Source: a phage
Assembly: GCA_008273105.1 (NCBI GenBank)
Contig: GCA_008273105.1_4080.1
Length of the DNA stretch: 64,000 nt
Direction: 5' to 3' (one strand)
In this document: positions 1-15,810 of the stretch, in pieces
Position numbering within the stretch: position 1 is the first letter of the stretch
How the letters are laid out: each line of letters starts with the position of its first letter
The notes under the pieces: model-generated
The model's input: only the letters and a program-made list of their open reading frames with translations
The model's database searches: none
Told to the model about the DNA's origin: nothing
Program-made: the position numbers and the translations under genes

Positions 1-251
1 ATTAATCTTCAAATCAGACCCAGGGCAATATGAAATGTATTCTGCTTTGTAATGAAAGTCATTATCATCAAAGTACTCCGCGTAGATTTGATTACCTCTA
101 CCATTAGTAAATGCTAGTCTTCCTTTAGATGAACTGAACTCATCGTATTGAAACATACCACCAAAAGGTTTAGGACTTCTGAACTCCTTTGCAATGCGAT
201 AGATATTTTCTGCAAATTCTAAAACACCATCGTAATCATATTCTATAGTAA
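1..251 (-). CDS. hypothetical protein, 3' end beyond window
   Basis: Minus-strand frame open from ATG at 251 to window edge (MITIEYDYDGVLEF...); abuts stop of next gene. Confidence 0.4.
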
Positions 252-728: not shown

Positions 729-787
729 TGTGTTATAACCCTTTACAATTAATATAAAGGGATTATATCACAAAAAATCGGTGGGTG

Positions 788-1372
788 TCAAGAGTGGTTG
801 CGAAGTTCTACCATTTCTTCCCAAACTAATTGGTAATCTTCTAAGTCCAGATAGAAGTCTTCATTCCAGTGCACATGAAAGTACTTATACATGAATAGAA
901 CTCCTAAATCGTATGCAGGAAACAATAATGATAGTTGAAAGTAGTATTCCTGATTTAAAACTATATCAATAAACTCTAATGTACGTATGCCACCTTTCGA
1001 TGAACGTATCTCAATGTGTGAGGTATCCTTCATACTGTAACACATGAAACCACCTCTAAATTCTGGATCATATTCACATTCGAACTGCTCACTGTTGTTA
1101 TAGAAATCTCTCCCACTTTCTTGATCTTTCGGTCTACGTACTGATACATGAATATTTTTATCACGGTACATTGAACGATTTAGTATTTTCAAACATTTGA
1201 ACTTATCTTCTTTAATGAACTTGATAATATCAATTATATCTTGTGCTGTACTGATAGCTGATTCGAATGTATCCAACTTAAGATGATTATATTGGGTTCC
1301 AGAGTTCATTTTTTTATCTAACATATAAACCTCATAATTCATACATTTTTGATTTGAACTGCATATGACCAC
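788..1372 (-). CDS. family-A small protein (divergent)
   Basis: ORF 194 aa; motif QEYYFQLSLLF ... FYLDLEDY; true start may be internal (about 1324). Confidence 0.5.
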   Translation of the reverse strand: MVICSSNQKCMNYEVYMLDKKMNSGTQYNHLKLDTFESAISTAQDIIDIIKFIKEDKFKCLKILNRSMYRDKNIHVSVRRPKDQESGRDFYNNSEQFECEYDPEFRGGFMCYSMKDTSHIEIRSSKGGIRTLEFIDIVLNQEYYFQLSLLFPAYDLGVLFMYKYFHVHWNEDFYLDLEDYQLVWEEMVELRNHS

Positions 1373-1667
1373 CTATTTCACATGGATAACAATTCATAAT
1401 TTTGTTCAATAGAATCTGGTATTTTTTAATAACTTCTATATCAATTTTTATATTACTATTAAAAACTAATGATTCTTGAAATAATTCCCCCTCGTCAAGT
1501 GAAGTAAAATCATTTATCTTCAAGGGTATATTGTTGCATCGCAAGGAGAATGTATTTTCATCACGAATTAAAGTATAGAAATCATTATGTTTTTTATTAT
1601 AATCAAATTTAACAAGTAGTAGTTTAATATGAGTAGCGTACATTACTTTAACTAATTCAGTCTTCAT
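1332..1667 (-). CDS. family-A small protein
   Basis: ORF 111 aa; motif DEGELFQESLVFN. Confidence 0.55.
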   Translation of the reverse strand: MKTELVKVMYATHIKLLLVKFDYNKKHNDFYTLIRDENTFSLRCNNIPLKINDFTSLDEGELFQESLVFNSNIKIDIEVIKKYQILLNKIMNCYPCEIGGHMQFKSKMYEL

Positions 1668-2019
1668 AACGGAATAAAATTCTCCTGTACTGCTCCGGTC
1701 CAGTACTCAATCTCTTCACTGGATAATTATCAAAGATTCTTTTCATTTCTTTCTGGATTAAACATAAGAAATCAAAGTTACAATCGTACTTATTATCCCA
1801 TACTAAACTTTCTTGGAATAACTCATCCTCTTGCATTAGTGTAGTGTCAATTACATCTTCACGAACATAGCTATATACTTCATAGCTCTTGAAGCCATCT
1901 TCTGATAATTCTAATTCATATGCAGCCATATCAAACATATCATCATGGTTTGTCTTCAATGATATTAAACAAGTAACTAATTTTTTAGTTGTATAGTATG
2001 TAATACTTAATGTGTTCAT
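1657..2019 (-). CDS. family-A small protein
   Basis: ORF 120 aa; motif QEDELFQESLVWD. Confidence 0.55.
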   Translation of the reverse strand: MNTLSITYYTTKKLVTCLISLKTNHDDMFDMAAYELELSEDGFKSYEVYSYVREDVIDTTLMQEDELFQESLVWDNKYDCNFDFLCLIQKEMKRIFDNYPVKRLSTGPEQYRRILFRYED

Positions 2020-2024
2020 TTGTT

Positions 2025-2627
2025 TTATACCTCAGTATAAAGCTTACAATAGCTTTCATCAAAATCACAAACACTTCTCAAGTACTGACACAGGTCATTG
2101 AAAATATTTACATTTGATATATATACATTATCAAATTCTGTTCGTTGAAAGAATGTATGCATAGAATTTGTAATATATCGCATTGCATCTTCACGTCCCA
2201 TAGTTATATCATTTGTGAACATTGCATCTTCATCAGTACTGATGTGTTCTATTTTAAATGATTTCATAAATGGAATACTCTTTCCTAGGGCATAACCATC
2301 ACCATATGATGCTTCTACTGCACCTTTAGAATAAAGGAATTGATATAAGTCCGAATCACGATTATAAAAAGTACGACATACGGAGGAACATAATTTATTA
2401 TCTATATGAAATAAAAATCTTTTAGCATTTTTGTCTAATACTATTCGCAATGCATCACTCTCTAGAAATATATCACCATCAAGCATAAATGAGAACTGTA
2501 CTAATGCTTTTTCTAAATCCGCTCGTTTGTGATAAATCATTTCCTGCATATATATAATATCATTTGCTAATTTCTTAAAAAACAAATGCACATCTGCACT
2601 ACAACATTTATTTGCATTTATTGACAT
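2025..2627 (-). CDS. hypothetical protein
   Basis: ORF 200 aa, co-oriented and abutting neighbours; no clear family motif. Confidence 0.5.
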   Translation of the reverse strand: MSINANKCCSADVHLFFKKLANDIIYMQEMIYHKRADLEKALVQFSFMLDGDIFLESDALRIVLDKNAKRFLFHIDNKLCSSVCRTFYNRDSDLYQFLYSKGAVEASYGDGYALGKSIPFMKSFKIEHISTDEDAMFTNDITMGREDAMRYITNSMHTFFQRTEFDNVYISNVNIFNDLCQYLRSVCDFDESYCKLYTEV

Positions 2628-3178
2628 AATAGTTCCTTATACATATGATGTACTTTACAAATCTCATTATAGTATTTCATATCAATGTCATTTGTATTAA
2701 AAACGGAAACAGACAATACTGCTAACTTATCAATTAAGTAATTATTATCGGCGTACTCTTTTAACTTATTGAACATATAGATGCATTTTATACTTAATTC
2801 ATCATGCAACACACTGTTCTGAAAAATATTCTCTTCAGTATTAGGAGATAAGTAATCTTCAATTATATACGATAAACTACTATCGCAATCTTTATAGATT
2901 GAAATTGATGGATGTAATGTGTCATACATTACACTAAACAGATCACCGTCATATGTGGATATTAAACTATTATTGGAAACAGTAGGATGATAATATTTCA
3001 GTACTGAAAACTTTGAACAATCAGTGCAGTAAAAATGATCCATCCCTCGACGACTTTCGTATGAGAATAGTTTACTTGTATATTCAATCCCTTTGGTGCG
3101 ACGGATTGTTTCATGCATTTCTGCACATTGCATTAAAATTACCATACGTTCAAACGCAATATCTAAATCATCGTACAT
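2618..3178 (-). CDS. family-A small protein
   Basis: ORF 186 aa; motif TEENIFQNSVLHD. Confidence 0.55.
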   Translation of the reverse strand: MYDDLDIAFERMVILMQCAEMHETIRRTKGIEYTSKLFSYESRRGMDHFYCTDCSKFSVLKYYHPTVSNNSLISTYDGDLFSVMYDTLHPSISIYKDCDSSLSYIIEDYLSPNTEENIFQNSVLHDELSIKCIYMFNKLKEYADNNYLIDKLAVLSVSVFNTNDIDMKYYNEICKVHHMYKELLCQ

Positions 3179-3359
3179 AACGGATATCCTTCTTCAGCGA
3201 ATTAATATATTCCAAAATAACTTGTTCCTGATATTGGGTTCCCAAGTACATCAGGACTTTCAACTCTTTGAATTCAGTACTATATGAGTCTGTTTGCATC
3301 ATTCTAGTAGAATATATATTGAATAGTTTAGCAATGTCATTTTGGTCTATTATTTTCAT
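3168..3359 (-). CDS. family-B small protein (LGTxxQ core)
   Basis: ORF 63 aa; motif YLGTQYQEQVI; outlying member of the 16-24 kb array family. Confidence 0.5.
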   Translation of the reverse strand: MKIIDQNDIAKLFNIYSTRMMQTDSYSTEFKELKVLMYLGTQYQEQVILEYINSLKKDIRYVR

Positions 3360-3558
3360 ATATTCTCTTCTGGATTAGTTCCTGTAAGTGCTGAATATAA
3401 CCCTTCATTGCAACATCCTGTTTGTTAGAGCCAACGAAGAACAAGAGCTTAAAGTCATGGTAATCCATTTTTGGTTTAGTAGTGAACCATATGTCCCACA
3501 CTGCACTCACAGTTCTCATGTATTCAATTCGATTAAATGTTTTTGAATACTTCATCAA
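3337..3558 (-). CDS. family-B-like small protein
   Basis: ORF 73 aa; degenerate motif FVGSNKQDVAM. Confidence 0.45.
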   Translation of the reverse strand: MMKYSKTFNRIEYMRTVSAVWDIWFTTKPKMDYHDFKLLFFVGSNKQDVAMKGYIQHLQELIQKRIYENNRPK

Positions 3559-4069
3559 TGTTAATCGCCAATAAGTTAATATACAAATTACTGTTAAATG
3601 CTATCTGCAATTCCATATAGAACTGAATGATAGCATAGTCAGGGTCAGTACACGATAGTTGAAAACACTGTTCGTCAAATGCATTGTAATTGTACTTAGG
3701 GATGTGAATTTCACGCTTCAAATCAGGTTGACCCCACTTCATCGCATACACACCAATGTTATTGTTCTTTTTCCTTTTCTTAAATGTTAATTGTTGAATA
3801 TTTCCAGCGTTGTCTAGGAAAATAGTATTATTCGACACAGGTGCACCAATAGAAAACAATGATGTATCAATTACGTGTGTCTCACGCACCTCACACTTCT
3901 GGAATGCCCCAGTACCCTGTAATACATAATGAAAATTGTACTTCTCATTAACAACAGTACTAGGATCGATTAAACCAGTACTGCATTTTTTGAGTACTGG
4001 TACAATGGTGCGAATCTTTTTTGATAAATCTTGTAATGCATCAAAGTCATTGATGTTAACTTTCATCAC
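3533..4069 (-). CDS. hypothetical protein (weak family-A signal)
   Basis: ORF 178 aa; GTGAFQKCEV weak match to F-Q core. Confidence 0.5.
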   Translation of the reverse strand: MMKVNINDFDALQDLSKKIRTIVPVLKKCSTGLIDPSTVVNEKYNFHYVLQGTGAFQKCEVRETHVIDTSLFSIGAPVSNNTIFLDNAGNIQQLTFKKRKKNNNIGVYAMKWGQPDLKREIHIPKYNYNAFDEQCFQLSCTDPDYAIIQFYMELQIAFNSNLYINLLAINIDEVFKNI

Positions 4070-4515
4070 TCGAATGTAGCCTCTTCAGTAGTAACAAAAT
4101 TGGTTAGTGTATCCAGTTCAGCAGTGTCAAGATAAAATACATCTAGTACAGATTTCTGATATATTACACTGAATGTGCATAGATTGTCAAGTGTCCCTTG
4201 TTCATAAACAGTACTACCCTGGAAGTACCCTTCTTCAGTACTCAGGGATAAAATATCTGAAATTTTAAAAGATTCTTCAGTTGCATGTCTTTCTATATTA
4301 ACTATATTGCCGTTTCGGTTCAATGAAATATAATCGTATGCTAACTCAATTAGACTATAATTATCCGCATTAGTGTCAAATAAAGCGACAATTTTTCGTC
4401 TCAATCTCTCATCGTGATCATGGTTTTCATCAGCTAAGTATTCAGGATTTTCTTTGAAGAATTTAACGACGCGTAGAATATCATTTGCTTTCTTGATTGC
4501 ACTTTCGTAACTCAT
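4066..4515 (-). CDS. family-A small protein
   Basis: ORF 149 aa; motif STEEGYFQGSTVY ... FYLD; ATGA overlap with neighbour. Confidence 0.55.
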   Translation of the reverse strand: MSYESAIKKANDILRVVKFFKENPEYLADENHDHDERLRRKIVALFDTNADNYSLIELAYDYISLNRNGNIVNIERHATEESFKISDILSLSTEEGYFQGSTVYEQGTLDNLCTFSVIYQKSVLDVFYLDTAELDTLTNFVTTEEATFE

Positions 4516-4820
4516 AATAATTCAACCACTCCATCTCTAAAGTACATATAACTACCACCATTGGATACTGTGAATTCTATTGTCCCCAATAATATATTAT
4601 ATTTTTTTATTTCACATGTAGTACTTGTAGTGTAAGGCTCACCATCTCCTAAGTACATTGACATATGACATAGAACTTTTCTACCAGCATATTTCTCTTC
4701 AAACGATTGTTCAAAACTATGCATAATTTGATTTAAAGCTGAAATGTAATTAATAAAGTCAGGTATTTCTGTCAATGAATTATAAACCGTACAAAGTGAA
4801 TCAAATTCATTTTTAGTCAT
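4512..4820 (-). CDS. hypothetical protein
   Basis: ORF 102 aa in operon context; no family motif. Confidence 0.45.
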   Translation of the reverse strand: MTKNEFDSLCTVYNSLTEIPDFINYISALNQIMHSFEQSFEEKYAGRKVLCHMSMYLGDGEPYTTSTTCEIKKYNILLGTIEFTVSNGGSYMYFRDGVVELL

Positions 4821-5134
4821 TATATTTCTATCTCAATGTAATCCTGTGTGATTAAATAATCCCAATGATACTTCACCTGCTTTTGTAATTCAATTAACGT
4901 AAAGAAGTTGATCGATTTATCCCATACGAGAGATTCCTGGAAAATAAATGATTCATGTTCATCGTAATAATCACACTCTAAAAAATCAGGTATATATTCA
5001 CTATCGTGAATGTATTCAACAAACGAACTAGCTTGGCATTTCTTTACTACTAGTAATAATGAATTATCATGATCAAACAGATACAATAAACTAATTTCAC
5101 CAGGGACGTACTGAACACTGAATAAGTTTTTCAT
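4820..5134 (-). CDS. family-A small protein
   Basis: ORF 104 aa; motif ESFIFQESLVWD. Confidence 0.55.
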   Translation of the reverse strand: MKNLFSVQYVPGEISLLYLFDHDNSLLLVVKKCQASSFVEYIHDSEYIPDFLECDYYDEHESFIFQESLVWDKSINFFTLIELQKQVKYHWDYLITQDYIEIEI

Positions 5135-5583
5135 TCTATACCTTCTGGATCTTTACGAAGTTCTTCGAAATCCAAATAAAATCGAGGACAGTTAACACTC
5201 TTTAAGTACCACATAATAACTAATGCTTCAAGTACTTCATCATCGTAAACAGTACTGTTTTGGAAGTAATACTCTTCACTATCCCACGGACCTTCCAGTA
5301 CTTCATAATTCAAAATTAATGGTTTTTTGCGATTAATAAAACGAATGCTACCATTTTCAACATAACTAATAAATTCTGCATCTCTATTGTATTCAGAAAA
5401 CGATATAGGACTATTGGAATTCAACCCAAGAATAACCCTTACACCAACGGAGTTATTATACATTTCATCCTTGTAGTAGTTGCCGTTCTCGGCTTTGTAC
5501 ACTTCTTTGAACTTTCCTGCCTTTATATCGTCAAAGTATCCATGTAGTTCTTTTGCTTTTTCAAGAGCACTTTGTAATGACAT
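5131..5583 (-). CDS. family-A1 protein (MSLQSAL... GPWDSEEYYFQ subfamily)
   Basis: ORF 150 aa; N-term MSLQSALEKAK, core GPWDSEEYYFQNSTVY, MWYLKS, FYLDF. Confidence 0.65.
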   Translation of the reverse strand: MSLQSALEKAKELHGYFDDIKAGKFKEVYKAENGNYYKDEMYNNSVGVRVILGLNSNSPISFSEYNRDAEFISYVENGSIRFINRKKPLILNYEVLEGPWDSEEYYFQNSTVYDDEVLEALVIMWYLKSVNCPRFYLDFEELRKDPEGIE

Positions 5584-6049
5584 TACCTTCTCCTACAGTA
5601 TTCTCTACATATTCATAATCAAAATAGAAACTACTGGAGTCAATACTTTTGAAATACCACATAATTACAATAACATCTAATTCTTCTTCATTGTACAACG
5701 TACTATTCTGGAAGTAATATTCTTCACTATCCCACGGTCCTTCCAGTACTGAATAAGGAATGATAGTGTCATCAGCATCACTATCTGTGTTGTAGATGGT
5801 AATATCTTCATTACGGCAATAACTAATGTACTGATTGTACATATGATATTCACAGTTATCACTGTCACCAGTATCAGTGTGCAGTACTAATGTTTCTGCA
5901 CATATCTCGGACTCGTCATAATCGTCACGGTCTTTTACAAAAAATTCAGTATCAGATGTTTTATATACACCTGGTACTGAACCTTCCTGTACCATAATCA
6001 TGTACTCATGAATCTTCTTTGCTTCTTTCAATGCACTTTGTAATGACAT
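5561..6049 (-). CDS. family-A1 protein
   Basis: ORF 162 aa; MSLQSALKEAK ... GPWDSEEYYFQNSTLY ... MWYFKS. Confidence 0.65.
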   Translation of the reverse strand: MSLQSALKEAKKIHEYMIMVQEGSVPGVYKTSDTEFFVKDRDDYDESEICAETLVLHTDTGDSDNCEYHMYNQYISYCRNEDITIYNTDSDADDTIIPYSVLEGPWDSEEYYFQNSTLYNEEELDVIVIMWYFKSIDSSSFYFDYEYVENTVGEGNVITKCS

Positions 6050-6492
6050 TACAAATCCCCTGTACTTAAATATTCACATGCTCCCCAGTCAAGAAAGAAT
6101 GGTTCAAAATTCAATTCCTTAAAGTACCACAACACAACCAAGGAATCAAGAATTTCTTGGTTAAAAATGAGACTCTGTTGGAAGTAATACTCTTCAGAAC
6201 CCCACGGGCCATCAAGTACCCCGAAGTCAACAGGTGTATTTGTTGTGTCAAAAGTAATCTTAGTACCTGGAATATATACAAAAAAATTAGTATATTGACT
6301 ACATGAAGAGTACTGTATAGTATTGTCTTTATCCTGTCCCATAAGTAAAATATCATCAGAGTATGTCTTTATACCTGATAGATAATACTCATTACCAAAT
6401 GCACTTACTTTATCACCATAGAAACCACTTTTTATGTTATCGTGGAAGTGATGTATTCTGTGTGCTAGTTCAAGTGCACTTGCTAAACTCAT
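6049..6492 (-). CDS. family-A1 protein
   Basis: ORF 147 aa; MSLASALELAH ... GPWGSEEYYFQQSLIF ... LWYFKE. Confidence 0.65.
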   Translation of the reverse strand: MSLASALELAHRIHHFHDNIKSGFYGDKVSAFGNEYYLSGIKTYSDDILLMGQDKDNTIQYSSCSQYTNFFVYIPGTKITFDTTNTPVDFGVLDGPWGSEEYYFQQSLIFNQEILDSLVVLWYFKELNFEPFFLDWGACEYLSTGDL

Positions 6493-6959
6493 ATATCCTC
6501 TTTAATAACTCGTAGTAGATCCAAGTCCAAATAGAAGCTAGGACAATCTGTATTATTAAAGTACCACAGAATGACAAGCTTGTCAAGTACATCTTCCTCG
6601 TAGATAGTATTCTGCTGGAAGTAGTACTCTTCACTTCCCCAGTCATTATCCAGTACTGAATACGGAAGATGTTTCTCTGCTGCACCAGATATAATGTCAG
6701 AATCTTGTATTAAAATATCAGCATCACGACAGAAGTACATGTAATTATCTTCCAAATTAACATCACACCCATTGAGTGTTGTTTCAGAAGAATCTAAGTT
6801 TTCTTCATACATGTGAATGTACTCACTACTGTCATCGTATCTCATTCGACAATATGATTTACCTTCCTTGAATAGATATCCATTAAGACAATTTGCTACA
6901 ATTTCTTTGCTGCATAAATCAATTAACTTCGCAATCTCTAATGCTCTTTCTAAACTCAT
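6489..6959 (-). CDS. family-A1 protein
   Basis: ORF 156 aa; MSLERALEIAK ... DWGSEEYYFQQNTIY ... LWYFNN. Confidence 0.65.
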   Translation of the reverse strand: MSLERALEIAKLIDLCSKEIVANCLNGYLFKEGKSYCRMRYDDSSEYIHMYEENLDSSETTLNGCDVNLEDNYMYFCRDADILIQDSDIISGAAEKHLPYSVLDNDWGSEEYYFQQNTIYEEDVLDKLVILWYFNNTDCPSFYLDLDLLRVIKEDI

Positions 6960-6960
6960 T

Positions 6961-7452
6961 TCAACCCCTGTTAATACCGTTATCTACAGTTTTCTTTACG
7001 TATTTGTAATCGAAATAGAAGTTCCCAGAACCAATACTTTTAAAGTACCACATAATTATAATAACATCAAGTACTTCATTATCATATACAGTACTTTGTT
7101 GGAAGTAATACTCTTCACTATCCCACGGACCTTCCAGTACTTCACTCGGAATTATAATGTCATTGGAATCGCTGTCAGTACTGTTGATGGTATCTGTATC
7201 ATTAATATAGACCATGTACTCATTATGCATATTAATGAAGCATTCATAATCATTAGGGTCGGTATCTAGTATGCACGTTTCTGTATCCAGTACGCACGTT
7301 TCTGTATCTGAGCAGTCATTATAAAGGAGGTTATCCGGTACATAATATTGAGTACTTGTGTCTTTGAAAACACCGTAAACTGAACCTTCTTTTGCCATAT
7401 TCATGTACTCATGAATCTTCTTTGCTTTTTCCAATGAACTCTGTAATGTCAT
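6961..7452 (-). CDS. family-A1 protein
   Basis: ORF 163 aa; MTLQSSLEKAK ... GPWDSEEYYFQQSTVY ... MWYFKS. Confidence 0.65.
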   Translation of the reverse strand: MTLQSSLEKAKKIHEYMNMAKEGSVYGVFKDTSTQYYVPDNLLYNDCSDTETCVLDTETCILDTDPNDYECFINMHNEYMVYINDTDTINSTDSDSNDIIIPSEVLEGPWDSEEYYFQQSTVYDNEVLDVIIIMWYFKSIGSGNFYFDYKYVKKTVDNGINRG

Positions 7453-7461
7453 TTTATAATC

Positions 7462-7821
7462 TCATATATTGAAATAATAATTATTCGTTCTTGATGGGGA
7501 TGGATTAAATACGTTTTCTTTTTCAAATCTCTTCATTTCATTTTGCAAAGAAACCATTTCTTCAAATGTACAGGAGTACTTATTCTTATCAAACACTAAT
7601 GCAGCCTGAAATAGTTCACCATCGTCCAGTACTGTATAATCTATAAGACTCTCAGATTCATAGTCATAGTCGTCATGTGATACATGAATAAATTTAAAAC
7701 AAGAATCTTTGTAATGCATATATAAACTCAACTCATGTTCCGAGTCGCCCTTAATAAGATTACAGCACAAGTCCCATCCTTTAGGTAACTTATAATAGTA
7801 CATAGAATAATCATATGTCAT
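7462..7821 (-). CDS. family-A small protein
   Basis: ORF 119 aa; motif DDGELFQAALVFD. Confidence 0.55.
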   Translation of the reverse strand: MTYDYSMYYYKLPKGWDLCCNLIKGDSEHELSLYMHYKDSCFKFIHVSHDDYDYESESLIDYTVLDDGELFQAALVFDKNKYSCTFEEMVSLQNEMKRFEKENVFNPSPSRTNNYYFNI

Positions 7822-8174
7822 TCTTGAATTCCTAAATTGAATTTGTATTCTTGATTAATACTTGCATTGGGTTTATGCAAAGCAGCATACTCTTTCATTT
7901 CATTTTGTATTGCAATAACTTCTTCAAATGTACACAAGTACTTCTTATCAAATACTAATGATTCTTGGAATAGTTCTGCGGTATCCATTAATGTATAGTC
8001 CGGCATATCTTGGTGTGGATACTGTAATGAACTGTAATCAATGAATGTAAATTTACCCTGAGTGTAATGAATATACTCATTTGCACTGTGCATTAAATCA
8101 CCTTTGTTTAAATTACAAAAGTACTGATAACTGTGCTTGAAAGTATGTACTGATATTAAAAAATCAAATTCCAT
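7818..8174 (-). CDS. family-A small protein
   Basis: ORF 118 aa; motif DTAELFQESLVFD; its N-terminal 79 bp is duplicated at 8625-8703. Confidence 0.55.
   Translation of the reverse strand: MEFDFLISVHTFKHSYQYFCNLNKGDLMHSANEYIHYTQGKFTFIDYSSLQYPHQDMPDYTLMDTAELFQESLVFDKKYLCTFEEVIAIQNEMKEYAALHKPNASINQEYKFNLGIQE
8096..8174. repeat. 79-bp direct repeat, copy 1 (5' end of gene 7818..8174)
   Basis: aatcacctttgtttaaattacaaaagtactgataactgtgctt...ccat, near-identical (2 mismatches) to 8625-8703. Confidence 0.8.
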
Positions 8175-8545
8175 CAGTACTCAACCTCTACATAAATAGA
8201 TTCAGGAAACTTAGTCATATAATCTTCTGGATAGTTCTGCATTACTTTGATCATTTCTGCCTGTGTAGCACGGACGTATTCAATTGGTGCTCCTGGTAAA
8301 TTCCAGACAGTACTTTCCTGAAAGAATTCCTCTTCTGACAGTACTGTCAGATTTACAAAATCATTACGGTAATTTTTTGAATCATCATATGTGAAGATTT
8401 TAAAAGACCCATTTTCATATAGTACAAGAACAAAATGGGAGAATTTTTGTAATGCACCACCAAGGCTTTCCACGACCGCATGATTCAGTGTACAGATGAC
8501 CTCTTTTTTCCTCATACCGAATTGAATTCTAATTTCTTTTTTCAT
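8174..8545 (-). CDS. family-A small protein
   Basis: ORF 123 aa; motif SEEEFFQESTVWN. Confidence 0.55.
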   Translation of the reverse strand: MKKEIRIQFGMRKKEVICTLNHAVVESLGGALQKFSHFVLVLYENGSFKIFTYDDSKNYRNDFVNLTVLSEEEFFQESTVWNLPGAPIEYVRATQAEMIKVMQNYPEDYMTKFPESIYVEVEY

Positions 8546-8703
8546 AAAATCTCCTTCAGATTAGTACTGAATTTGTACAGAATATTAGAACTGTATACAG
8601 CCTCTGTATCTGTATCCATAATCAAATCACCTTTGTTTAAATTACAAAAGTACTGATAACTGTGCTTAAAAGAATGTACTGATATTAAAAAATCAAATTC
8701 CAT
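8542..8703 (-). CDS. chimeric ORF / gene fragment from partial duplication
   Basis: 53-codon frame; first 27 aa duplicate N-terminus of 7818..8174 then diverge; ATGA overlaps at both ends. Confidence 0.3.
   Translation of the reverse strand: MEFDFLISVHSFKHSYQYFCNLNKGDLIMDTDTEAVYSSNILYKFSTNLKEIL
8625..8703. repeat. 79-bp direct repeat, copy 2
   Basis: Near-identical to 8096-8174. Confidence 0.8.
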
Positions 8704-9080
8704 CACTCTTCCCCTAGATTGAAATGATTACAAAAATCATCTTCACCAGTACTGCACCAGATGTCTATACATTCTCTGTGAATACATTTAATTCTACGCT
8801 GTAATTCAATCATCTCTTCTAATGTACAGATGTACTTCTTATCAAATACTAATGCCGCCTGAAACAGTGCAGCATCATCAAGTACTGTATAGTCCAACAT
8901 CTCGGTTGCTTTACCCCTAAACCCAGTACTAAAATCCATCAAATAAAAGTCAGCATTCCAGTACTTTAAAATCTTGTCCCTAGCGTAGTTTAAATCACCC
9001 TTGTATAAGTTAGAGTGCGTAACTAACTCACCAGTGTACATCCATGTCCTTGCACAAAATTCATTATATTTTATTTCCAT
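8703..9080 (-). CDS. family-A small protein
   Basis: Motif DDAALFQAALVFD; start set at MEIKYNEF (9080) because upstream 47 aa of the six-frame ORF look like translated non-coding sequence. Confidence 0.5.
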   Translation of the reverse strand: MEIKYNEFCARTWMYTGELVTHSNLYKGDLNYARDKILKYWNADFYLMDFSTGFRGKATEMLDYTVLDDAALFQAALVFDKKYICTLEEMIELQRRIKCIHRECIDIWCSTGEDDFCNHFNLGEE

Positions 9081-9276
9081 CTTAATCTCTACTATAATTA
9101 ATAAGGTAAACTCCAATATAAGGAGAACGTTCGGCGGCGGGGTATTTTTTGTTTCAAGAAACATGAACTGTACTCTGAAAAACACAATATAAAACTTTAT
9201 ATTAAACATATACCTTAGCATGTTTTTCAGCGGAAATTTTTTTGACCCCCCTGCGGCCTGTCAAAATGAAACGTCT

Positions 9277-9501
9277 CTATTTATTCAGCCTAGAAACCTT
9301 GATTTCTTCAATCCTTTTCATTGCACAAAGCCTTCGACTCGTCCTCTCGTATATATTCAATACTCGCTGTAATGCATTATCTGTATTATCTGCAACTGCA
9401 ATCTGAACCAAATATGTATCCTTCAAAATAGAATCCATCATGAATTCAAAACCTTTCACACTAAAGCAATATGCCACTTCCGGCTCTTCAAACGTAATCA
9501 T
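9277..9501 (-). CDS. hypothetical protein
   Basis: ORF 74 aa, co-oriented. Confidence 0.45.
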   Translation of the reverse strand: MITFEEPEVAYCFSVKGFEFMMDSILKDTYLVQIAVADNTDNALQRVLNIYERTSRRLCAMKRIEEIKVSRLNK

Positions 9502-9691
9502 AATTCCAATCCCCTATTCCCTCTAACCTTCTAAGATATCTTGCGTAAATTATTTCGAAATATCTGTGCAACGAAATTACGGATTGCTCATAATCATCAT
9601 TCCTGTACATTGTGCATGTCAGAAAATCATTTAACCCAAAATCTAAACTGCACTTGAACTTCTCCTTAGCAACATCTCTAAAATTATTCAT
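9488..9691 (-). CDS. hypothetical protein
   Basis: ORF 67 aa, overlaps neighbour stop. Confidence 0.45.
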   Translation of the reverse strand: MNNFRDVAKEKFKCSLDFGLNDFLTCTMYRNDDYEQSVISLHRYFEIIYARYLRRLEGIGDWNYDYV

Positions 9692-9845
9692 AATATGTCC
9701 TCTGTACAGCGTAGGTGTACTGTGAACTCAGCACCACTAATAGGTAATCTATATTGTAAGCACGATTTCCTCGTTGACTAGCACGGCTGGAATAAAGAAT
9801 ATTATCCACATATGTATTGAACTGATCTTCAAATAACTCTTTCAT
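9684..9845 (-). CDS. hypothetical small protein (53 aa, below ORF-track cutoff)
   Basis: Manual translation MKELFEDQFNTYVDN...; stop overlaps next ATG (ATGAATAA). Confidence 0.35.
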   Translation of the reverse strand: MKELFEDQFNTYVDNILYSSRASQRGNRAYNIDYLLVVLSSQYTYAVQRTYYE

Positions 9846-9873
9846 CAGCATTATACCATCACATAATCATACA

Positions 9874-10425
9874 TCATACATTAACAACTTTATCGATGTA
9901 ATCTTCTAACATATCAATATATCTGGTATTGGTTCTAACTAAAAGGTATGCAAATCCAGAGAACTCCTGTGTATAATGCTTTACAGCGTACATACAACGA
10001 AGCTTATCATTGTCATACATTGTACTGTACTGAAACAAACTCTCGTCTGATAGCTCTAATAACGCTTGGGCTTCACTTCTCGTGAACTTCATAGGGTCAT
10101 GTACTGCATCACAAAAACAAACCTGTGTCTCGCTATTGAAACCCTGTGATAGATATATACCTTCACACTCTGAACGCACCGATACTGCATTATAACTATG
10201 TGTTGCCCCCATCATATCTGAACTCAAAACTAAAATCAACCCATTTTTATTTTTAATCAACAAATCTGACTTAAGGGATTTGATCTCCGTATGGGAAATA
10301 TCACCAAATCTTCCTGGGACTTCAAACTTATCAACGTTGTATACAATCTTTTGTACTTGCTCTTTTAAACGCTTAATTGCACTTCTGTCTTTTTCTAATG
10401 TATCTAATAAACTCATTGAACTCAT
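9874..10425 (-). CDS. family-A small protein
   Basis: Motif SDESLFQYSTMYD; start set at MSSMSLL preceded by AAGGAAAG. Confidence 0.5.
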   Translation of the reverse strand: MSSMSLLDTLEKDRSAIKRLKEQVQKIVYNVDKFEVPGRFGDISHTEIKSLKSDLLIKNKNGLILVLSSDMMGATHSYNAVSVRSECEGIYLSQGFNSETQVCFCDAVHDPMKFTRSEAQALLELSDESLFQYSTMYDNDKLRCMYAVKHYTQEFSGFAYLLVRTNTRYIDMLEDYIDKVVNV

Positions 10426-10435
10426 TGTACTTTCC

Positions 10436-10780
10436 TTACATATTTGTACCGAACAAAACGGAACTTTGAATGCCATTAATCGACACTTCATGTACATATA
10501 TATTTTGTCTGAACAAAGGAACTAATTGAACTAAACTCGTTTGCATAATAATATGCATATGTACATTGTCATATGCCGTTTCGTATTGGAATCGTGCAGC
10601 TTCATCTTCTATGAAATTCGGAACTTGGACTGGATTCTCAAAATTTGTCCTTGTACTGAACTGTACATCATTGTCCTGTACCTTAATACCATATGAATTA
10701 TCATTGTTATCAACTACATCAAATTCAATTAAACTACCATCTTTACTGACGTTTACTATATAAACCGAAAATCGACTCAT
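10436..10780 (-). CDS. family-A small protein (divergent)
   Basis: ORF 114 aa; motif EDEAARFQYETAYD. Confidence 0.5.
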   Translation of the reverse strand: MSRFSVYIVNVSKDGSLIEFDVVDNNDNSYGIKVQDNDVQFSTRTNFENPVQVPNFIEDEAARFQYETAYDNVHMHIIMQTSLVQLVPLFRQNIYVHEVSINGIQSSVLFGTNM

Positions 10781-11295
10781 AAACCTATTTCCTCTAAATC
10801 TTTGACAAATGTATCATAATCCGATAATGACAAAAATATGTCTGTACTGATGTTTTGACGTAATGTATTAAACAAATTATGTACCTGTAATAAATCAGGT
10901 GCATAAATCAGGGATTGCTGGAAATACGATTCTTCTGTATCTAATATATCCCTGCACTCAATTTCACGAACTCGTTGGTATATTGAATTTAATAATACAT
11001 TTTCATCTTTGAGCATTGGAAGGTATCTGATGTACATGTGCTCCATCAACTCATCCTGGATTGAACCCCTGAACTGCAACACGTATTCAAAACACATCAC
11101 TACATCTTGTAGGTAATTGGCACTGTAATTATTGCTGTAAACAATCTTATGACTTCTGAACTCATCATCATCATTTCTGAACCAATTGTCACCCACTTTG
11201 GTGTACTTATGACTAAGCTTCCCATCCTCCAACGCTCGAATGAACTTCATAATGTTAATTGCAAAATCATATGAATGATGCTTGTGTTGATGCAT
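10777..11295 (-). CDS. family-A small protein
   Basis: ORF 172 aa; motif DTEESYFQQSLIY. Confidence 0.55.
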   Translation of the reverse strand: MHQHKHHSYDFAINIMKFIRALEDGKLSHKYTKVGDNWFRNDDDEFRSHKIVYSNNYSANYLQDVVMCFEYVLQFRGSIQDELMEHMYIRYLPMLKDENVLLNSIYQRVREIECRDILDTEESYFQQSLIYAPDLLQVHNLFNTLRQNISTDIFLSLSDYDTFVKDLEEIGL

Positions 11296-11303
11296 TTTTT
11301 ACC

Positions 11304-11498
11304 TCAATTCTGTCCGAAAAAATAACCAAAATGTTTAAAGCAAGAAAGCATTACTATGTTCATCACTCTATCATCAAATTCATCTTGTGTTTCTGCACAT
11401 AATGTTTCACAGATATTCAAATGTAATAATTCAAGCTGGAAACTGTCGGTGAACCAATCAAACTTACGGTATTTTTGTTTAACATCAACTGTAAGCAT
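11304..11498 (-). CDS. hypothetical protein
   Basis: ORF 64 aa. Confidence 0.4.
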   Translation of the reverse strand: MLTVDVKQKYRKFDWFTDSFQLELLHLNICETLCAETQDEFDDRVMNIVMLSCFKHFGYFFGQN

Positions 11499-11499
11499 A

Positions 11500-12123
11500 C
11501 TATATATCCAACCCTTTTACAACATCTACGAAATGTTCAAACACTTCTTTTGAAAAATAACCACCTTCACAAAAAAGCATACTAAACGGTGGCAGCATGT
11601 CCGATAACTCTTTAGCTAAATTGATTTCTGCTCTTAACTCTTGAACATCAATGATATCATGTACTAAAGATAATTGAAACATGAATGCATCTACATCTTC
11701 ATTCATTTCTGAATTGTAATATAACTCTTCAGGGAATTTGTCGGTTTCGTAATAATAAAAAACTTTATTGTTGAACACACCACTAATAGGAACATCATTT
11801 TCATCTTTCTTTGAAATGTTTGTTTCCCATGACTCTATATTATTAGGAACAAAAAAATCATAGGCTGATTTTGAACCCTGTACTGAATCCAACTTTATTC
11901 CATAATATTCCGTATCCATGTATTTCTGCTGTAATGTAATACCACGTGTACTGACATTCACTTGGAATATATCATCTTTATCTGGAACACTAAATGGAAT
12001 ACATAACACTGAATTCTCAGGGTATTTGGCAATGAATGCATCCAGCACTTTATTAAGCACCGGAATGGCAATTTTACTGTACTGCATCAAATCATACATT
12101 TTAATTCTGGTCATATCATTCAC
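11500..12123 (-). CDS. family-A protein
   Basis: ORF 207 aa; motif EDVDAFMFQLSLVHD. Confidence 0.55.
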   Translation of the reverse strand: MNDMTRIKMYDLMQYSKIAIPVLNKVLDAFIAKYPENSVLCIPFSVPDKDDIFQVNVSTRGITLQQKYMDTEYYGIKLDSVQGSKSAYDFFVPNNIESWETNISKKDENDVPISGVFNNKVFYYYETDKFPEELYYNSEMNEDVDAFMFQLSLVHDIIDVQELRAEINLAKELSDMLPPFSMLFCEGGYFSKEVFEHFVDVVKGLDI

Positions 12124-12655
12124 CTGTGTATGTTTTCACCCTTAGCGATTCAAAATCCCATACATCACTGATTGTACCATTGTGCCTGTAATCATAATAT
12201 TCTACTAATACATTATACAATAACTTCAACGATACAAATTCATGATTCCACGGAGCTTTATTCTCATGAACACATTTGGTGATATAAGGTATAATATATA
12301 AACTAAACAACACTAATGGTGAATGTATACATTGCATTTGAAAATATTCTTCTTCTTGCATACAATGCTCAGGAATAATCAATTCCGTATGTGACCCTAA
12401 GCTATACGAACCTGCTGTGTATTTTTTCGTATCACATGCGTACCATATTGTACTATCCGAAATAAATGGAATGATACCATTATTGTTTGCAATGTACATC
12501 ATATGGTAAGAGCGATTTGTCTTGTTAAATATCTCGATACTTTCGATATTACTACAAATCATGTATTCAAGGCAATCAATGATCTTATCTTTAAATGTAC
12601 CAATTTCATTGAATGACATTGCTTTCTGTACTTTTGATACTGTTGTACTGCTCAT
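12116..12655 (-). CDS. family-A protein (divergent)
   Basis: ORF 179 aa; motif QEEEYFQMQCIH. Confidence 0.5.
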   Translation of the reverse strand: MSSTTVSKVQKAMSFNEIGTFKDKIIDCLEYMICSNIESIEIFNKTNRSYHMMYIANNNGIIPFISDSTIWYACDTKKYTAGSYSLGSHTELIIPEHCMQEEEYFQMQCIHSPLVLFSLYIIPYITKCVHENKAPWNHEFVSLKLLYNVLVEYYDYRHNGTISDVWDFESLRVKTYTGE

Positions 12656-13326
12656 ATGTTATCCTTAAAAAAATCCAAATACTCTTCATTGAAAGCATAT
12701 GTATCATCTTTTTTGTTATGCACCACATAATCATAAAGAGCTATGAATGCAGGGATTATGATCTTACATGATTTATTATTGTATTTGTGGTACTCCAAAT
12801 CAACGGTGTTCAATTTAGCAATAAGCATAGCAACAAAGATATCTTCATGGCGATGTACTGTACTGTACTGAAAATACTCATCCTCTCCAATATCTGGATG
12901 ATATAACGGTATAACCAAATTATTACGAATTGACATCTTATATTTTTGTAATGCAGCTAAATGTATGAACCACAATCTATCTTCATTGAAATATGGAAAA
13001 ATAATTTTGTCTGTGCTAATAAAAATTTCTTCATTTCGATTATTTGTCACAAGAGGTGCATACATTTTAATTTTTGCAGATCTAATAATTAAATTAAAAA
13101 TATAATGAATCTTATGAACTGCACTTGATGCATCTTCGTATGTACTTGGGATTATGAAACTCACTATATGTTCTCCTTTAAAATGATTACACATGATAAC
13201 AGCTTTGCACTTCTTTGTCAATACCAAAACGAAAAAAGCCCATATCTTACGATACAGGCGTGCTGGGCATGTTGATTTGAATTTCATTGTACAAATCATC
13301 AATATATAGACATGAAAAAAACACAC
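12652..13326 (-). CDS. family-A protein
   Basis: ORF 224 aa; motif GEDEYFQYSTVH; start probably internal (overlap with upstream gene). Confidence 0.5.
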   Translation of the reverse strand: MCFFHVYILMICTMKFKSTCPARLYRKIWAFFVLVLTKKCKAVIMCNHFKGEHIVSFIIPSTYEDASSAVHKIHYIFNLIIRSAKIKMYAPLVTNNRNEEIFISTDKIIFPYFNEDRLWFIHLAALQKYKMSIRNNLVIPLYHPDIGEDEYFQYSTVHRHEDIFVAMLIAKLNTVDLEYHKYNNKSCKIIIPAFIALYDYVVHNKKDDTYAFNEEYLDFFKDNI

Positions 13327-13753
13327 TATCTTGTACTATATTGTTGTGATAAAGCATTTTAAATACTACATAAAAAAATAAATCAATATCATCGTGGACT
13401 AAATTCTGCTGGAACCACCACTCGTCTGTTAAATCTTGTGCATTAAAATCATCAGGAACTTCAATGAACGACATATCACAATCTTCTTTGTACTCAAACC
13501 ACATGTCGTCATTCGGATAACGTTCATGCTTCTCTGGGTAACAATTGCTGGGATTAAATGTTAAAATATTAAACCCCGTAGAGCAACGTTCTTTATTTAA
13601 AAATGTATTATTCCATACCTGATATTTTTCACCAACATCAAGCTCTTCTGTTACTGATTTTATTGCACATAATGTACTGTATATTGTTTCTATCTTGTGA
13701 ACATATTTAAATGCAGCATCTAAGCTGAACTCTAAATCATACATGTACTGCAT
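13247..13753 (-). CDS. family-A protein
   Basis: ORF 168 aa; motif TDEWWFQQNLVHD. Confidence 0.55.
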   Translation of the reverse strand: MQYMYDLEFSLDAAFKYVHKIETIYSTLCAIKSVTEELDVGEKYQVWNNTFLNKERCSTGFNILTFNPSNCYPEKHERYPNDDMWFEYKEDCDMSFIEVPDDFNAQDLTDEWWFQQNLVHDDIDLFFYVVFKMLYHNNIVQDSVFFSCLYIDDLYNEIQINMPSTPVS

Positions 13754-14073
13754 AAAATTACCTCAACTAAAGCAAGGACTGTATTGAATTCCACTATACT
13801 TGTAATTCCTTGAAGGTACATGTACTTTGCTACTACATATTTCTGTACTAAATTATAATTTTTAAATTCCTCAAAATTGTAATTTAGAACAAAATCTGTA
13901 CTCAAAAATAACTTATGCATCTCTAATGCACTTTGATAATACGCGTACAACTCACTGATATCAATACTGGTTAAATTATATTGTTCATATCTATGATACG
14001 GGATGGCTTCAATTTCAATACTATAAAACCATTCTCTTAACTTATTAATATCAAATGTATTATTCAGCTTCAT
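13732..14073 (-). CDS. hypothetical protein
   Basis: ORF 113 aa. Confidence 0.45.
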   Translation of the reverse strand: MKLNNTFDINKLREWFYSIEIEAIPYHRYEQYNLTSIDISELYAYYQSALEMHKLFLSTDFVLNYNFEEFKNYNLVQKYVVAKYMYLQGITSIVEFNTVLALVEVILCSTCMI

Positions 14074-14626
14074 AACTCAATACCTCCATTAAACACTCAT
14101 ACACACCATCAATCGCATAAGCACAAAAATTGAAATTAATTTTGTGATTCTTGTGTAATGGACTATTGTGTACTGTACTCATTATGACATTATAAAATAA
14201 CAAACGCACTGGTACAAGCATTGAACCTTGGAAAAATTCTTCCTCTGATTTATATGTATTGTACTCTATTGTTTTGTTCGTTTCTTTATCATATGTTACC
14301 ATTACTAATGGGGCATTTTTATTATACCATGCGTACTCTAAATCATTCTTTCCAATAACAGCACCAGGTGCGAAATCCAAAAGACCAATAACACTACGGG
14401 AATTTGGGGTATCAGGTGTATTGAATCGTTTATCAAAATGACTCGTGCACGCAATATATGTATTGTACTTCGATGGAATAATACCAATACATTTGTGGAA
14501 ATGACGCTTGTGATATTTCTGGGCATTATATAAGGCTGCAACAATACAAGCTAACTTTTGTCCCATAAGGATTGCATTAGCGTAGGTGTACTGAATTTCA
14601 TTGCTGGTACGGTACTTCGAGGTCAT
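14060..14626 (-). CDS. family-A protein
   Basis: ORF 188 aa; motif SEEEFFQGSMLV. Confidence 0.55.
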   Translation of the reverse strand: MTSKYRTSNEIQYTYANAILMGQKLACIVAALYNAQKYHKRHFHKCIGIIPSKYNTYIACTSHFDKRFNTPDTPNSRSVIGLLDFAPGAVIGKNDLEYAWYNKNAPLVMVTYDKETNKTIEYNTYKSEEEFFQGSMLVPVRLLFYNVIMSTVHNSPLHKNHKINFNFCAYAIDGVYECLMEVLSYEAE

Positions 14627-14909
14627 AATATTTCCTTTGCCATATCATGGGCTTAAAATCAATAACAGCTTTCTGTATCTTTTTTAATAATAAGACATCA
14701 TAACCACCCGTGTCAATCACTAATTGCTGTTGGAACAATTCTTCATCGGATAATGTATTGAAATCTACAAAATAATCTGTAACTATCGAATCATTTAAAT
14801 GTGCCATGTACCAACCTGAACTTCTTGAATAAATCAAATTCCACCCATCGTCATCATCTTCTAATTCAACATAAATCATATCTGGGGTATACATCATTTT
14901 ATACTTCAT
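14598..14909 (-). CDS. family-A small protein
   Basis: ORF 103 aa; motif SDEELFQQQLVID. Confidence 0.55.
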   Translation of the reverse strand: MKYKMMYTPDMIYVELEDDDDGWNLIYSRSSGWYMAHLNDSIVTDYFVDFNTLSDEELFQQQLVIDTGGYDVLLLKKIQKAVIDFKPMIWQRKYYDLEVPYQQ

Positions 14910-15447
14910 AACTATATCCTTGCATTAATAAATCATAAACTACATGGACTAAATTTAATTGAATATAAAATTTTAAACCTTTAATTAATGGATTCAAATG
15001 CATTGTACTGAATAACATTAGATACATCATCTCATGCGGTTTTGTGATTAATGATTGTTGGAATACGCCAGCTTCATCATAAGGGTCTATGAACTGAAAT
15101 TTGTCTTCATCATAATTTGTATTGGAATGCTGATATATAAAATAATCATCATTGGTATTGTACCACAAATACCCTTCGAATCCTGTACTAACACCTTTGG
15201 TCAATGGGGATGCTGATACTGGATTTGAACTGATTAATGCACCTACATCAACAATCCCCGTTGTATCATATTCGATTTCAACATCAATATCAATGTATTT
15301 CCTTGCGATATCTGCGTTTATGGACAAATATAAACTACCACCTGTCCTCTGACTCAGGATTCCATCTATATGCGATATAGGATGGTTGTTATTGAGGATA
15401 AGCATTATTGTACTTATCTTGTGTGCTAATAACTCTATCTCATTCAT
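14899..15447 (-). CDS. family-A protein
   Basis: ORF 182 aa; motif DEAGVFQQSLIT. Confidence 0.5.
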   Translation of the reverse strand: MNEIELLAHKISTIMLILNNNHPISHIDGILSQRTGGSLYLSINADIARKYIDIDVEIEYDTTGIVDVGALISSNPVSASPLTKGVSTGFEGYLWYNTNDDYFIYQHSNTNYDEDKFQFIDPYDEAGVFQQSLITKPHEMMYLMLFSTMHLNPLIKGLKFYIQLNLVHVVYDLLMQGYSYEV

Positions 15448-15647
15448 AATTTACCTATCGATGGATACCTAGGATTTGTAGGATGTAAAATCCTGTCCTG
15501 TACTGAAAGGTGCTCAAATGTAATTAAACTCAAATAATAATCGTAATTATCAATACCACCCTTCAAATGTATATTGTAATACATCTTAATACTATCTAAT
15601 AATGAATCCTGTAATGCATTTAATGTTATCGTATTAATCTTTTGCAT
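15444..15647 (-). CDS. hypothetical protein
   Basis: ORF 67 aa. Confidence 0.45.
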   Translation of the reverse strand: MQKINTITLNALQDSLLDSIKMYYNIHLKGGIDNYDYYLSLITFEHLSVQDRILHPTNPRYPSIGKL

Positions 15648-15810
15648 TAATGTTCTTCTCTTAAAAATCGTTTGATAGCATAATCTAAATAAAATTCATA
15701 ACACATGCTATCTCTGTTCTTTATCCATATTTTGTAATCGGATTTTATATTACGCAACAAATAATTTGTATTAATTGTGTAATAATCTAATCGCCCTAAT
15801 CTTTCCATTT
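15646..15810 (-). CDS. hypothetical small protein (54 aa, below ORF-track cutoff)
   Basis: Manual translation MERLGRLDYYTINTNYLLRN...; TAATG overlap with downstream gene start. Confidence 0.4.

Follow-up and report, generated by a model that had tools for sequence, protein, structure and literature searches.

A direct repeat in a jumbo-phage gene array as the probable target duplication of an ectopically inserted gene cassette

In the Hendrix/Hatfull model of phage mosaicism, novel joints in tailed-phage genomes arise by illegitimate recombination. Morons are extra genes inserted between genes that are adjacent in related phages. Early genes in the hyperplastic regions of T4-type phages are reportedly shuffled by way of promoter/stem-loop cassettes, in a model of the type put forward by Arbiol, Comeau and Krisch. 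Microhomology-mediated template switching (FoSTeS/MMBIR) is known mainly from cellular genomes. The locus described here is phage mosaicism of the ordinary kind, made by illegitimate recombination and then spread homologously, and it stands out only in that sequences are available for the donor, the empty site and the product alike.

The window (the whole stretch of 64,000 nucleotides that was analysed) comes from an Asteriusvirus-type jumbo coliphage. In the region of interest, identity to jumbo coliphages of the Asteriusvirus type and to Salmonella phages is 93-99.8%; such close matches include phAPEC6, G17, SHEFM2K, slurp01, 121Q and PBECO4. Five genes, all on the minus strand, follow one another in the order gene 5, ORF53, gene 123, gene 118, gene 119 (the terms 'cargo' and 'recipient' anticipate the reading developed below):

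8703..9080, minus strand: gene 5, 125 aa, family phrog_15629, the upstream neighbour
8542..8703, minus strand: ORF53, 53 codons, a chimera
8174..8545, minus strand: gene 123, the cargo, 123 aa, family phrog_13866
7818..8174, minus strand: gene 118, family phrog_15629, the recipient gene
7462..7821, minus strand: gene 119, family phrog_15629

Genes 118, 119 and 5 match the 121-position profile of phrog_15629 end to end, and phrog_13866 is distantly related to that family. Pfam searches with all five genes and with gp366 of phage 121Q gave no match, and the PHROGs matches for these genes are to families of unknown function only. A full-text search of the papers on fEgEco12 (Asteriusvirus) and CBB (RaK2-like) found neither the locus nor paralogue arrays described.

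The locus was noticed through a pair of direct repeats. A preliminary description had reported 8096-8174 and 8625-8703 as near-identical with two mismatches, and a gapless alignment confirms this (77/79 identities). The full extent of the repeat is 82 bp, with 80 of 82 positions identical (97.6%) and a start-to-start distance of 529 bp between the copies:

8095..8176, minus strand: head copy 1, the downstream copy, made up of the first 79 nt of gene 118 and the shared TCA of the TGATGGA stop/start motif
8624..8705, minus strand: head copy 2, the upstream copy

Head copy 1 has the gene 118 start codon at 8174-8172; its low-coordinate end (8095-8099) reads GATTT in gene orientation and its high-coordinate end (8170-8176) reads TGATGGA, and these are the microhomologies of the left and right junctions, respectively. 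The 82 bp thus break down into the left microhomology (5 bp), recipient sequence (70 bp) and the right microhomology (7 bp). Head copy 2 gives ORF53 its ribosome-binding context, its ATG (8703-8701) and its codons 1-27. Of the two mismatches, one is silent; the other is non-synonymous, with gene 118 encoding Thr11 and ORF53 Ser11. In length, the pair ranks third among the high-identity direct repeats of the window. The chance expectation for such pairs is about 1e-31 in 64 kb (a composition-based estimate), and over its first 79 nt gene 118 shares only 44 positions with gene 119 and 53 with gene 5, its true array paralogues; the repeat is therefore not explicable by chance. An assembly artefact was considered and rejected, as the arrangement is present in more than 10 independent assemblies. 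The same arrangement occurs in nine further aligned phage genomes, in ECO103 4-12-1 (found with BLAST) and in one ENA metagenome contig.

The alignment of 21 genomes separates 10 filled genomes, all with identical junctions, from 11 empty ones, and the difference between these otherwise colinear relatives is one clean-bordered gap of 529 bp (592 bp relative to 121Q). This presence/absence unit comprises one head copy and the following segment:

8177..8623, minus strand: the cassette read here as an insert, 447 bp, missing in 11 of 21 aligned relatives

The cassette contains a 3' fragment of a gene resembling A4_364 of phage A4, and then the complete gene 123. The preliminary description had taken the repeat for a free-standing 79-bp segmental duplication; instead, the copies flank this 447-bp segment with a whole extra gene at 8174..8545. 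In the empty-site genomes, the stop codon of gene 5 directly overlaps the start of gene 118 (GTGATGG). A 1051-bp query placed over the repeat pair matched the whole arrangement in 11 records and spanned exactly 522 bp in about 20. Phage E9.1 matches window positions 7400-8176 and 8621-9300 by way of one shared head copy, so its gene 5 directly precedes gene 118. Comparison with related genomes thus bears out the arrangement as real and present in other assemblies, but it points to the footprint of an insertion, not to a simple duplication; the broader claim that the locus records recombination in the gene array is supported.

The cassette has a recognizable donor arrangement. In phage A4, the 192-aa gene A4_364 overlaps the following gene A4_365 by ATGA; A4_364 is an intact, coherent gene, and the motif FQxxLxxD, a signature of the array, spans the point at which it is broken in the filled genomes. 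The full-length (192 aa) gene was found only in A4 and two metagenome contigs, and in a large protein database A4_364 has one relative only and gene 123 has five relatives at an identity of at least 94%. The donor order recurs in two Logan contigs, of which L027 is one; A4, L027 and L028 all have a 192/198-aa gene and then a 122-aa gene, colinear with the insert and reaching beyond it. The filled arrangement holds the last 142 bp of the 192-aa gene and the whole of the 122/123-aa gene. The alignment of phage 121Q with A4 needs no gap and has 483/522 identical nt; it begins at GATTTGATTATGGAT, takes in the cargo and ends at CTGATGGA. The tail of 121Q gp366 is the counterpart of the final 47 residues of A4_364 (...DLIMDVDSAATYSSNVLCKEFQNSKILELLYIADCNILYKFCTHLKEIL). 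The window aligns with A4 at 398/420 nt plus 46/56 nt; the nucleotide identity of the cassette is 95% to A4 and 96% to L027, and the gene 123 product is 93.5% identical to A4_365. When A4 is compared with the 1051-bp window query, the match is limited to the cargo gene.

The window also carries its own, diverged version of this gene pair elsewhere in the array:

2025..2627, minus strand: resident diverged homologue of A4_364, 200 aa, at the positionally orthologous place in the array
1657..2019, minus strand: resident positional counterpart of A4_365 and gene 123, 120 aa, 28% identical to A4_365

A4_364 and the product of 2025..2627 are colinear, with 24% identity over 191 aa (E=7e-9), and the A4 locus is syntenic with window positions 1-4069 at 27-42% amino acid identity, not with the insertion site. 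This synteny, together with the near-match of gene 123 to A4_365, indicates that the insert is ectopic; with a resident counterpart at 1657..2019, gene 123 amounts to an additional copy, foreign in type and ectopic in position. By these alignments, the insert is a partial, ectopic copy of an A4-type gene pair, and the resident diverged pair lies about 6 kb away. The copies and the interval between them do not derive from one contiguous genome sequence, as they would in a simple intragenomic duplication: the 447-bp interval is 95-96% identical to the A4/L027 locus, and the parent gene is present in the window only as a 24%-identical homologue. No full-length A4_364 was found in the filled genomes of the phage collection, which makes transfer from another genome more likely than a duplication inside a single genome. 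The sampled donors (A4, L027 and L028) are 93-96% identical to the insert overall, with 10 differences in the 21 nt adjoining the left joint; since they are not identical to it, the true donor would lie outside the sampled sequences. Junction-specific scans of IMG/VR and JGI metagenomes returned no further filled, empty or donor examples.

Both breakpoints coincide with microhomology, as in an illegitimate-recombination mosaic joint. At the left joint this is GATTT (5 bp, or 7/8 over GATTTRAT), which encodes Asp-Leu in the same phase in both parents. In gene orientation and with the joint marked by a slash, the gene 118 side reads ...AACAAAGGTGATTT/AATGCAC, the A4_364 side reads ...CAACAGGATTT/GATTATGGAT and the product reads ...AAAGGTGATTT/GATTATGGAT. 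At the right joint the microhomology is TGATGGA (7 bp), which is the stop/start overlap between adjacent genes; here A4 reads GAGTACTGATGGA/TTTAGT, the product GAGTACTGATGGA/ATTTGATT and the empty site GAAGTGTGATGGA/ATTTGATT. Within the recipient gene, the left and right joints are offset from each other by about 79 bp. As a result of this stagger, the 5' end of gene 118 is duplicated, and because its first 79 nt are present twice the gene itself is left intact.

At the left joint lies ORF53, in which the gene 118 head supplies codons 1-27 and the final 26 codons of the A4_364-like gene supply codons 28-53:

8542..8623, minus strand: ORF53 tail, the 3'-end remnant of an A4_364-like gene
8572..8587, minus strand: deletion scar, a 63-bp (21-codon) in-frame loss within the ORF53 tail

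The preliminary description was right about the chimeric origin of this reading frame, with 27 codons from the N-terminus of gene 7818..8174, but these are not identical in the two genes, which differ at residue 11 (Thr or Ser). The 'unrelated sequence' to which it saw them fused has a source after all, the 3' end of the A4_364-like gene. The ATGA overlaps it placed on both sides of ORF53 hold on the downstream side, where the boundary with gene 123 is a 4-nt ATGA overlap, but not upstream, where ORF53 meets gene 5 in a 1-nt TGATG overlap. ORF53 and 121Q gp366 match only positions 1-39 of the phrog_15629 profile (E=1.2e-9 and 2.7e-6), and neither is a full-length member of the family. Relatives annotate ORF53 as a hypothetical protein (phAPEC6 gp446c, G17_00559, PSLUR01_00268); 121Q gp366 is a 74-codon form of it. 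The 63 bp missing from the shorter form are kept in 121Q, in the ENA contig L029 and in donor-type A4 and L028, so the 53-codon form is derived. The deletion is flanked by two imperfect 15-nt direct repeats, TAATGTTCTGTGCAA and TAATATTCTGTACAA. From the donor, the tail inherits the AAGGAG Shine-Dalgarno sequence of gene 123 and the ATGA stop/start overlap; ORF53 thus takes its translation start from gene 118 and brings these donor signals to the cargo gene. A consensus scan of 7300-9500 for promoters and terminators, covering sigma-70-type signals only, gave none above the shuffle expectation and none flanking the cargo.

The head copies can be compared across genomes as alleles. Head copy 1 of the window is the single-copy allele of JP4, UB and WPEC3, and head copy 2 is that of PBECO4 and SD-15; the two window mismatches, which match alleles of empty-site genomes, are probably not new mutations. 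The two head copies differ at 13-16 of 82 positions in 121Q and CRJP21, and the ENA contig L029 has the same diverged head-2 patch. The first 30 and last 33 nt of the head are invariant across all 21 genomes. A search for the source of the diverged patch gave no match in the window within 9 mismatches, and in IMG/VR its sole match was 121Q itself. Divergence between copies does not measure the time since duplication here, with other filled genomes carrying very different head-2 alleles; because the window copies equal single-copy alleles, their near-identity reflects allele exchange and is unusable as a duplication age. Judged by these alleles, the near-identity is secondary and silent on when the duplication arose. 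Calling the duplication 'recent', in the sense of private to this genome, is not supported: its junctions are common to 121Q, slurp01, G17, phAPEC6 and others, and the copies are strongly diverged in 121Q and CRJP21, with the same patch in an ENA contig. The diverged patch co-occurs with the 74-codon form in 121Q and L029 and with the short form in CRJP21; in the window both the patch and the 63 bp are missing. This suggests an order in which patch and long tail were followed by patch and short tail (as in CRJP21), after which head 2 was replaced (as in the window).

The unit has also moved between backgrounds. In all filled genomes the insert is 96.8-100% identical, and the flanks drop to 80-90%. 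Turkey3 combines fEgEco12-type flanks, a head-2 allele of fEgEco12/CMSTMSU type and a window-type head 1; its insert is identical to that of the window at 447/447 positions, but its flanks are only 81-90% identical to the window. This pattern indicates the transfer of precisely one repeat unit, by crossovers that fell within the heads. Conversely, SD-15 has flanks 100% identical to the window, without the insert. Filled genomes are intermingled with empty ones in the neighbour-joining (NJ) tree of either flank, and the most divergent genomes (ph0011, UE-S1 and CMSTMSU) are all empty. The presence of the cassette is thus discordant with the phylogeny of its flanks, which argues that the unit was gained or lost by homologous recombination. 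On this pattern, genomes acquire the 529-bp unit through homologous recombination, shed it when the repeats recombine with each other, or do both; for any single empty-site genome, primary absence and secondary precise deletion may each fit.

We consider it probable, at roughly 80%, that the repeat is the target duplication left by the ectopic insertion of a gene cassette. The ancestral arrangement is gene 5 followed directly by gene 118, which persists in PBECO4, E9.1, SD-15 and others, and a relative whose array is of the A4 type has the 192-aa gene and the 122-aa gene elsewhere in the same array. In a mixed infection, or during recombination-dependent replication, a strand would exit gene 118 after nucleotide 79, copy the donor segment and re-enter the recipient at the gene 118 start codon, about 79 bp upstream of the exit. 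With re-entry upstream of exit, the gene 118 head would be duplicated and gene 118 would remain whole. The upstream head would be fused in frame to the donor gene tail, giving a 74-codon ORF that a later 63-bp in-frame deletion would shorten to 53 codons. Gene 118 would now use a downstream initiation context that came from the donor, and the cargo would keep its AAGGAG and ATGA overlap. Later, the 529-bp unit would have been exchanged among backgrounds through crossovers in the head copies, and the resulting reshuffling of head alleles would yield the near-identity seen in the window. The event may have been template switching or break-and-join, in one step or two; the sequence of the product is compatible with each. 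RaK2-like jumbo phages encode T4-type recombination proteins (UvsX, UvsW, gp46/47 and endonuclease VII; PMC5259590), and such functions are consistent with frequent recombination.

Other histories were weighed against the same evidence. The one closest to the preliminary description would have 79 bp of gene 118 recently duplicated in this same genome, next to unrelated sequence, so that a new ORF arose; it draws on copies that are 97.5% identical and 529 bp apart in the same array. It is highly improbable, given that a cassette of foreign type, for which the donor arrangement is defined, lies between the copies, that at least 10 other genomes or contigs have the arrangement in common, that the copies are far more diverged in 121Q, CRJP21 and L029, and that both window copies equal alleles from single-copy genomes. 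The polarity might also be reversed, with the filled state ancestral, ORF53 a decayed full-length array member and the single-copy genomes produced by deletion between the heads. Precise deletion works well on direct repeats of 82 bp, crossovers at differing positions in a window-like genome could give the heads of SD-15 and of JP4/UB, and the interleaving of empty and filled genomes in the flank trees fits as well; some individual empty sites may indeed be secondary losses. As an account of the origin this is nevertheless very unlikely: the tail family (A4_364, window 2025..2627) differs from the head family (phrog_15629), head and tail meet at a microhomology within a conserved donor motif, the cargo has its positional counterpart elsewhere in the array, and the three most divergent genomes, ph0011, UE-S1 and CMSTMSU, are empty without exception. 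Thus, a rearrangement into an empty site would still be needed. Transfer between genomes could be dispensed with if an A4-type pair had once stood at the position equivalent to 1657-2627, been partly copied about 6 kb upstream and later been replaced at its original place. Source and target would then be only some 6 kb apart in one array, and recombinational allele replacement is evidently common in the region; we find such a course distinctly unlikely, however, as no sequenced filled genome keeps the A4-type full-length gene and an extra replacement would be required in the ancestor of all filled genomes.

An autonomous mobile element with target-site duplication, whether a transposon or a homing-endonuclease cassette, is barely credible, even though a direct target duplication lies on either side of the insert, its occurrence among relatives is patchy, and conservation is far higher in the insert than in its flanks. 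The only complete gene encodes a 123-aa protein without Pfam match and without nuclease or transposase similarity; no homing endonuclease of the LAGLIDADG, GIY-YIG, HNH or similar families is encoded, nor is the combination of terminal inverted repeats with a transposase or recombinase present. An inverted-repeat scan gave no pairs coinciding with both cassette ends, one end of the insert is a truncated gene, and the duplication of 70-82 bp is far above transposon target duplications. A separate question is whether ORF53 is a functional new chimeric gene under selection. It is intact in all 11 filled sequences, it inherited a working translation start, and both the fusion and the later 63-bp deletion preserved the frame (a joint chance of about 1 in 9, which is a weak hint of selection). 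On the other hand, divergence among the filled genomes is too low for intactness to inform; pN/pS in the tail (0.39-0.61) is similar to that in the cargo (0.28-0.41), with tiny counts; the head is only 27 of the ~118 residues of the parent fold; and the head region is freely swapped between alleles. Function is therefore unlikely, and ORF53 most likely a by-product.

If ectopic insertion of a cassette is taken as the preferred reading, a further idea concerns what the product could do next. Being bracketed by two copies of a very conserved head, the 529-bp unit could act as a self-contained, 'homology-armed' cassette that loops out as a circle and re-enters relatives at a single head by a Campbell-type single crossover. 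We regard this as speculative and quite unlikely; if true, it would account for Turkey3, and a one-off illegitimate event would have made an ordinary gene horizontally mobile without dedicated enzymes. Selection for the cargo or for an ORF53 function might drive such spread.

As a case study, the locus provides a base-resolved example of how a giant-phage gene array is remodelled, with sequenced states that include the donor, the unoccupied site, the 74-codon primary product, the 53-codon deletion product and a transfer into a divergent background. Stop/start overlap sequences can serve as recombination punctuation, and when two joints are staggered, a gene can be added while the recipient gene survives. 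Small 'hypothetical proteins' such as phAPEC6 gp446c, G17_00559 and 121Q gp366 can be junction by-products and not genes proper. The locus is also a warning that copy divergence is unreliable for dating duplications where alleles exchange freely. It shows neither a new kind of element nor any function.

Compared with the known systems, the locus resembles a transposon target-site duplication in having direct repeats of target sequence around an insert, but the repeats are 70-82 bp long here versus 2-14 bp, and unlike a transposon the insert has no terminal inverted repeats, no transposase and a truncated gene at one end. With FoSTeS/MMBIR it shares a templated insertion with 5-7 bp microhomologies, duplication of adjacent recipient sequence and a cluster of base changes adjoining one joint; the evidence differs in that it consists here of the product sequence alone, and break-and-join would give the same product. 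As in T4-type modular shuffling, small genes of unknown function move between large myoviruses at short repeats, but in this locus the 5' coding end of the recipient gene forms the repeat, which the insertion itself made; the promoter/hairpin repeats of the window lie at 25-44 kb, away from the insertion site. Like a moron, gene 123 is an extra gene between two genes that are neighbours in close relatives, and its presence is patchy. The sigma-70-type scan detected no promoter or terminator of its own. Unlike a moron, it is embedded in the operon through stop/start overlaps; it brings along part of the gene that used to precede it, and the array around it is of its own superfamily. The closest likeness is to the Hendrix/Hatfull novel joints: near-identity switches abruptly to no similarity at defined breakpoints, these lie at or near gene boundaries with short microhomologies, and the new joint spreads by homologous recombination through its flanks. 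The differences are that donor arrangement, empty site and product are all sampled here at base resolution, and that the joints are staggered, so that the recipient gene is intact and about 79 bp of it are present twice.

The repeated head of gene 118 (7818..8174, minus strand), present at 8095-8176 and 8624-8705 on either side of the 447-bp insert, is conserved chiefly at its two ends. The first 30 nt (8145-8174) and the last 33 nt (8095-8127) are invariant in all 21 aligned genomes, even in genomes whose identity to the window is 85-92% over the remainder of gene 118 and only 80-85% in the upstream neighbour, gene 5 (8703..9080, minus strand); variable sites are clustered in codons 10-17. 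The second copy of the head has invariant stretches at the positions equivalent to 8095-8127 and 8145-8174 of the first.

Directly 3' of the left junction, where the second head meets the tail of the 53-codon ORF, the window differs from the donor-type sequences of phage A4 and Logan contig L028 by 10 substitutions in 21 nt (8600-8620). These 21 nt read GATACAGATACAGAGGTTGTA in the genomes with the insert and GATGTGGATTCAGCAGCTACA in the donors; outside 8600-8620, the tail and the cargo gene (gene 123, 8174..8545) differ from the donors by only about 5%. This cluster could stem from a donor that has not been sampled, from relaxed constraint or from mutagenesis associated with the junction.

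The relatives offer two further observations on gene 5. Its homologue in phAPEC6, gp447c (L007 1704-2081), is annotated as 'amidohydrolase 3'. The Pfam search, run with the window's gene 5 as the counterpart of gp447c, gave no amidohydrolase match, and the homologues are called hypothetical in every other record; this label is probably wrong. In phage UE-S1 (L026 819-1547), the equivalents of gene 5 and gene 118 are annotated as one 242-aa CDS, with a 1-nt insertion at the boundary between them (column 1815 of the 21-genome alignment); the CDS may represent either a natural gene fusion at this junction or a sequencing error.

Elsewhere in the array, a 46-nt perfect repeat (5260-5305 and 7099-7144) joins the phrog_9317 paralogues 5131..5583 and 6961..7452, whose identity apart from this repeat is 76-78% over stretches of 145-218 nt; the repeat may be a gene-conversion tract inside the array. 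Many of the listed minus-strand genes in window 1-16000 carry a common sequence motif, E-x-[FY]-F-Q-x-[SA]-x-[VL]-[WFYH]-[DN] (for example ELFQESLVFD, EYYFQNSTVYD and MFQLSLVHD), and the PHROG families 15629, 13866 and 9317 cross-match one another. Taken together, the shared motif and the cross-matches suggest that a single large superfamily of unknown function occupies much of this region.

On the scale of the whole window, the palindrome AGTACT occurs 259 times, compared with 20 +/- 5 expected from dinucleotide-preserving shuffles and 77 for the next most frequent palindromic hexamer. It is spaced at about 150-250 bp across most of the window, in all reading frames and in intergenic repeats, and is absent from two blocks, 8961-16545 (7.6 kb) and 19120-24496 (5.4 kb). 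The first boundary of these blocks matches the position where gene 5 starts, together with intergenic region 9081-9276.

Two other sets of repeats lie further along. At 49500-64000 (plus strand) there are 12 paralogues in tandem, each about 375-433 aa long, linked by repeats of up to 94 nt with 97% identity; every one has the N-terminus MLPFGRM(V/L)KYGN and a near-identical upstream region (TATAAT ... AGGAGG). An element of 48-97 nt, in which a GC-rich hairpin (GGGGAGAACCATTTCTCCCC-like) adjoins promoter-like hexamers on the minus strand (TTGCAA or TTGACA, 17 nt, TATAAT), occurs 26 times between small minus-strand genes at 25200-44030. These elements are reminiscent of the early-promoter/stem-loop cassettes in T4-type phages.
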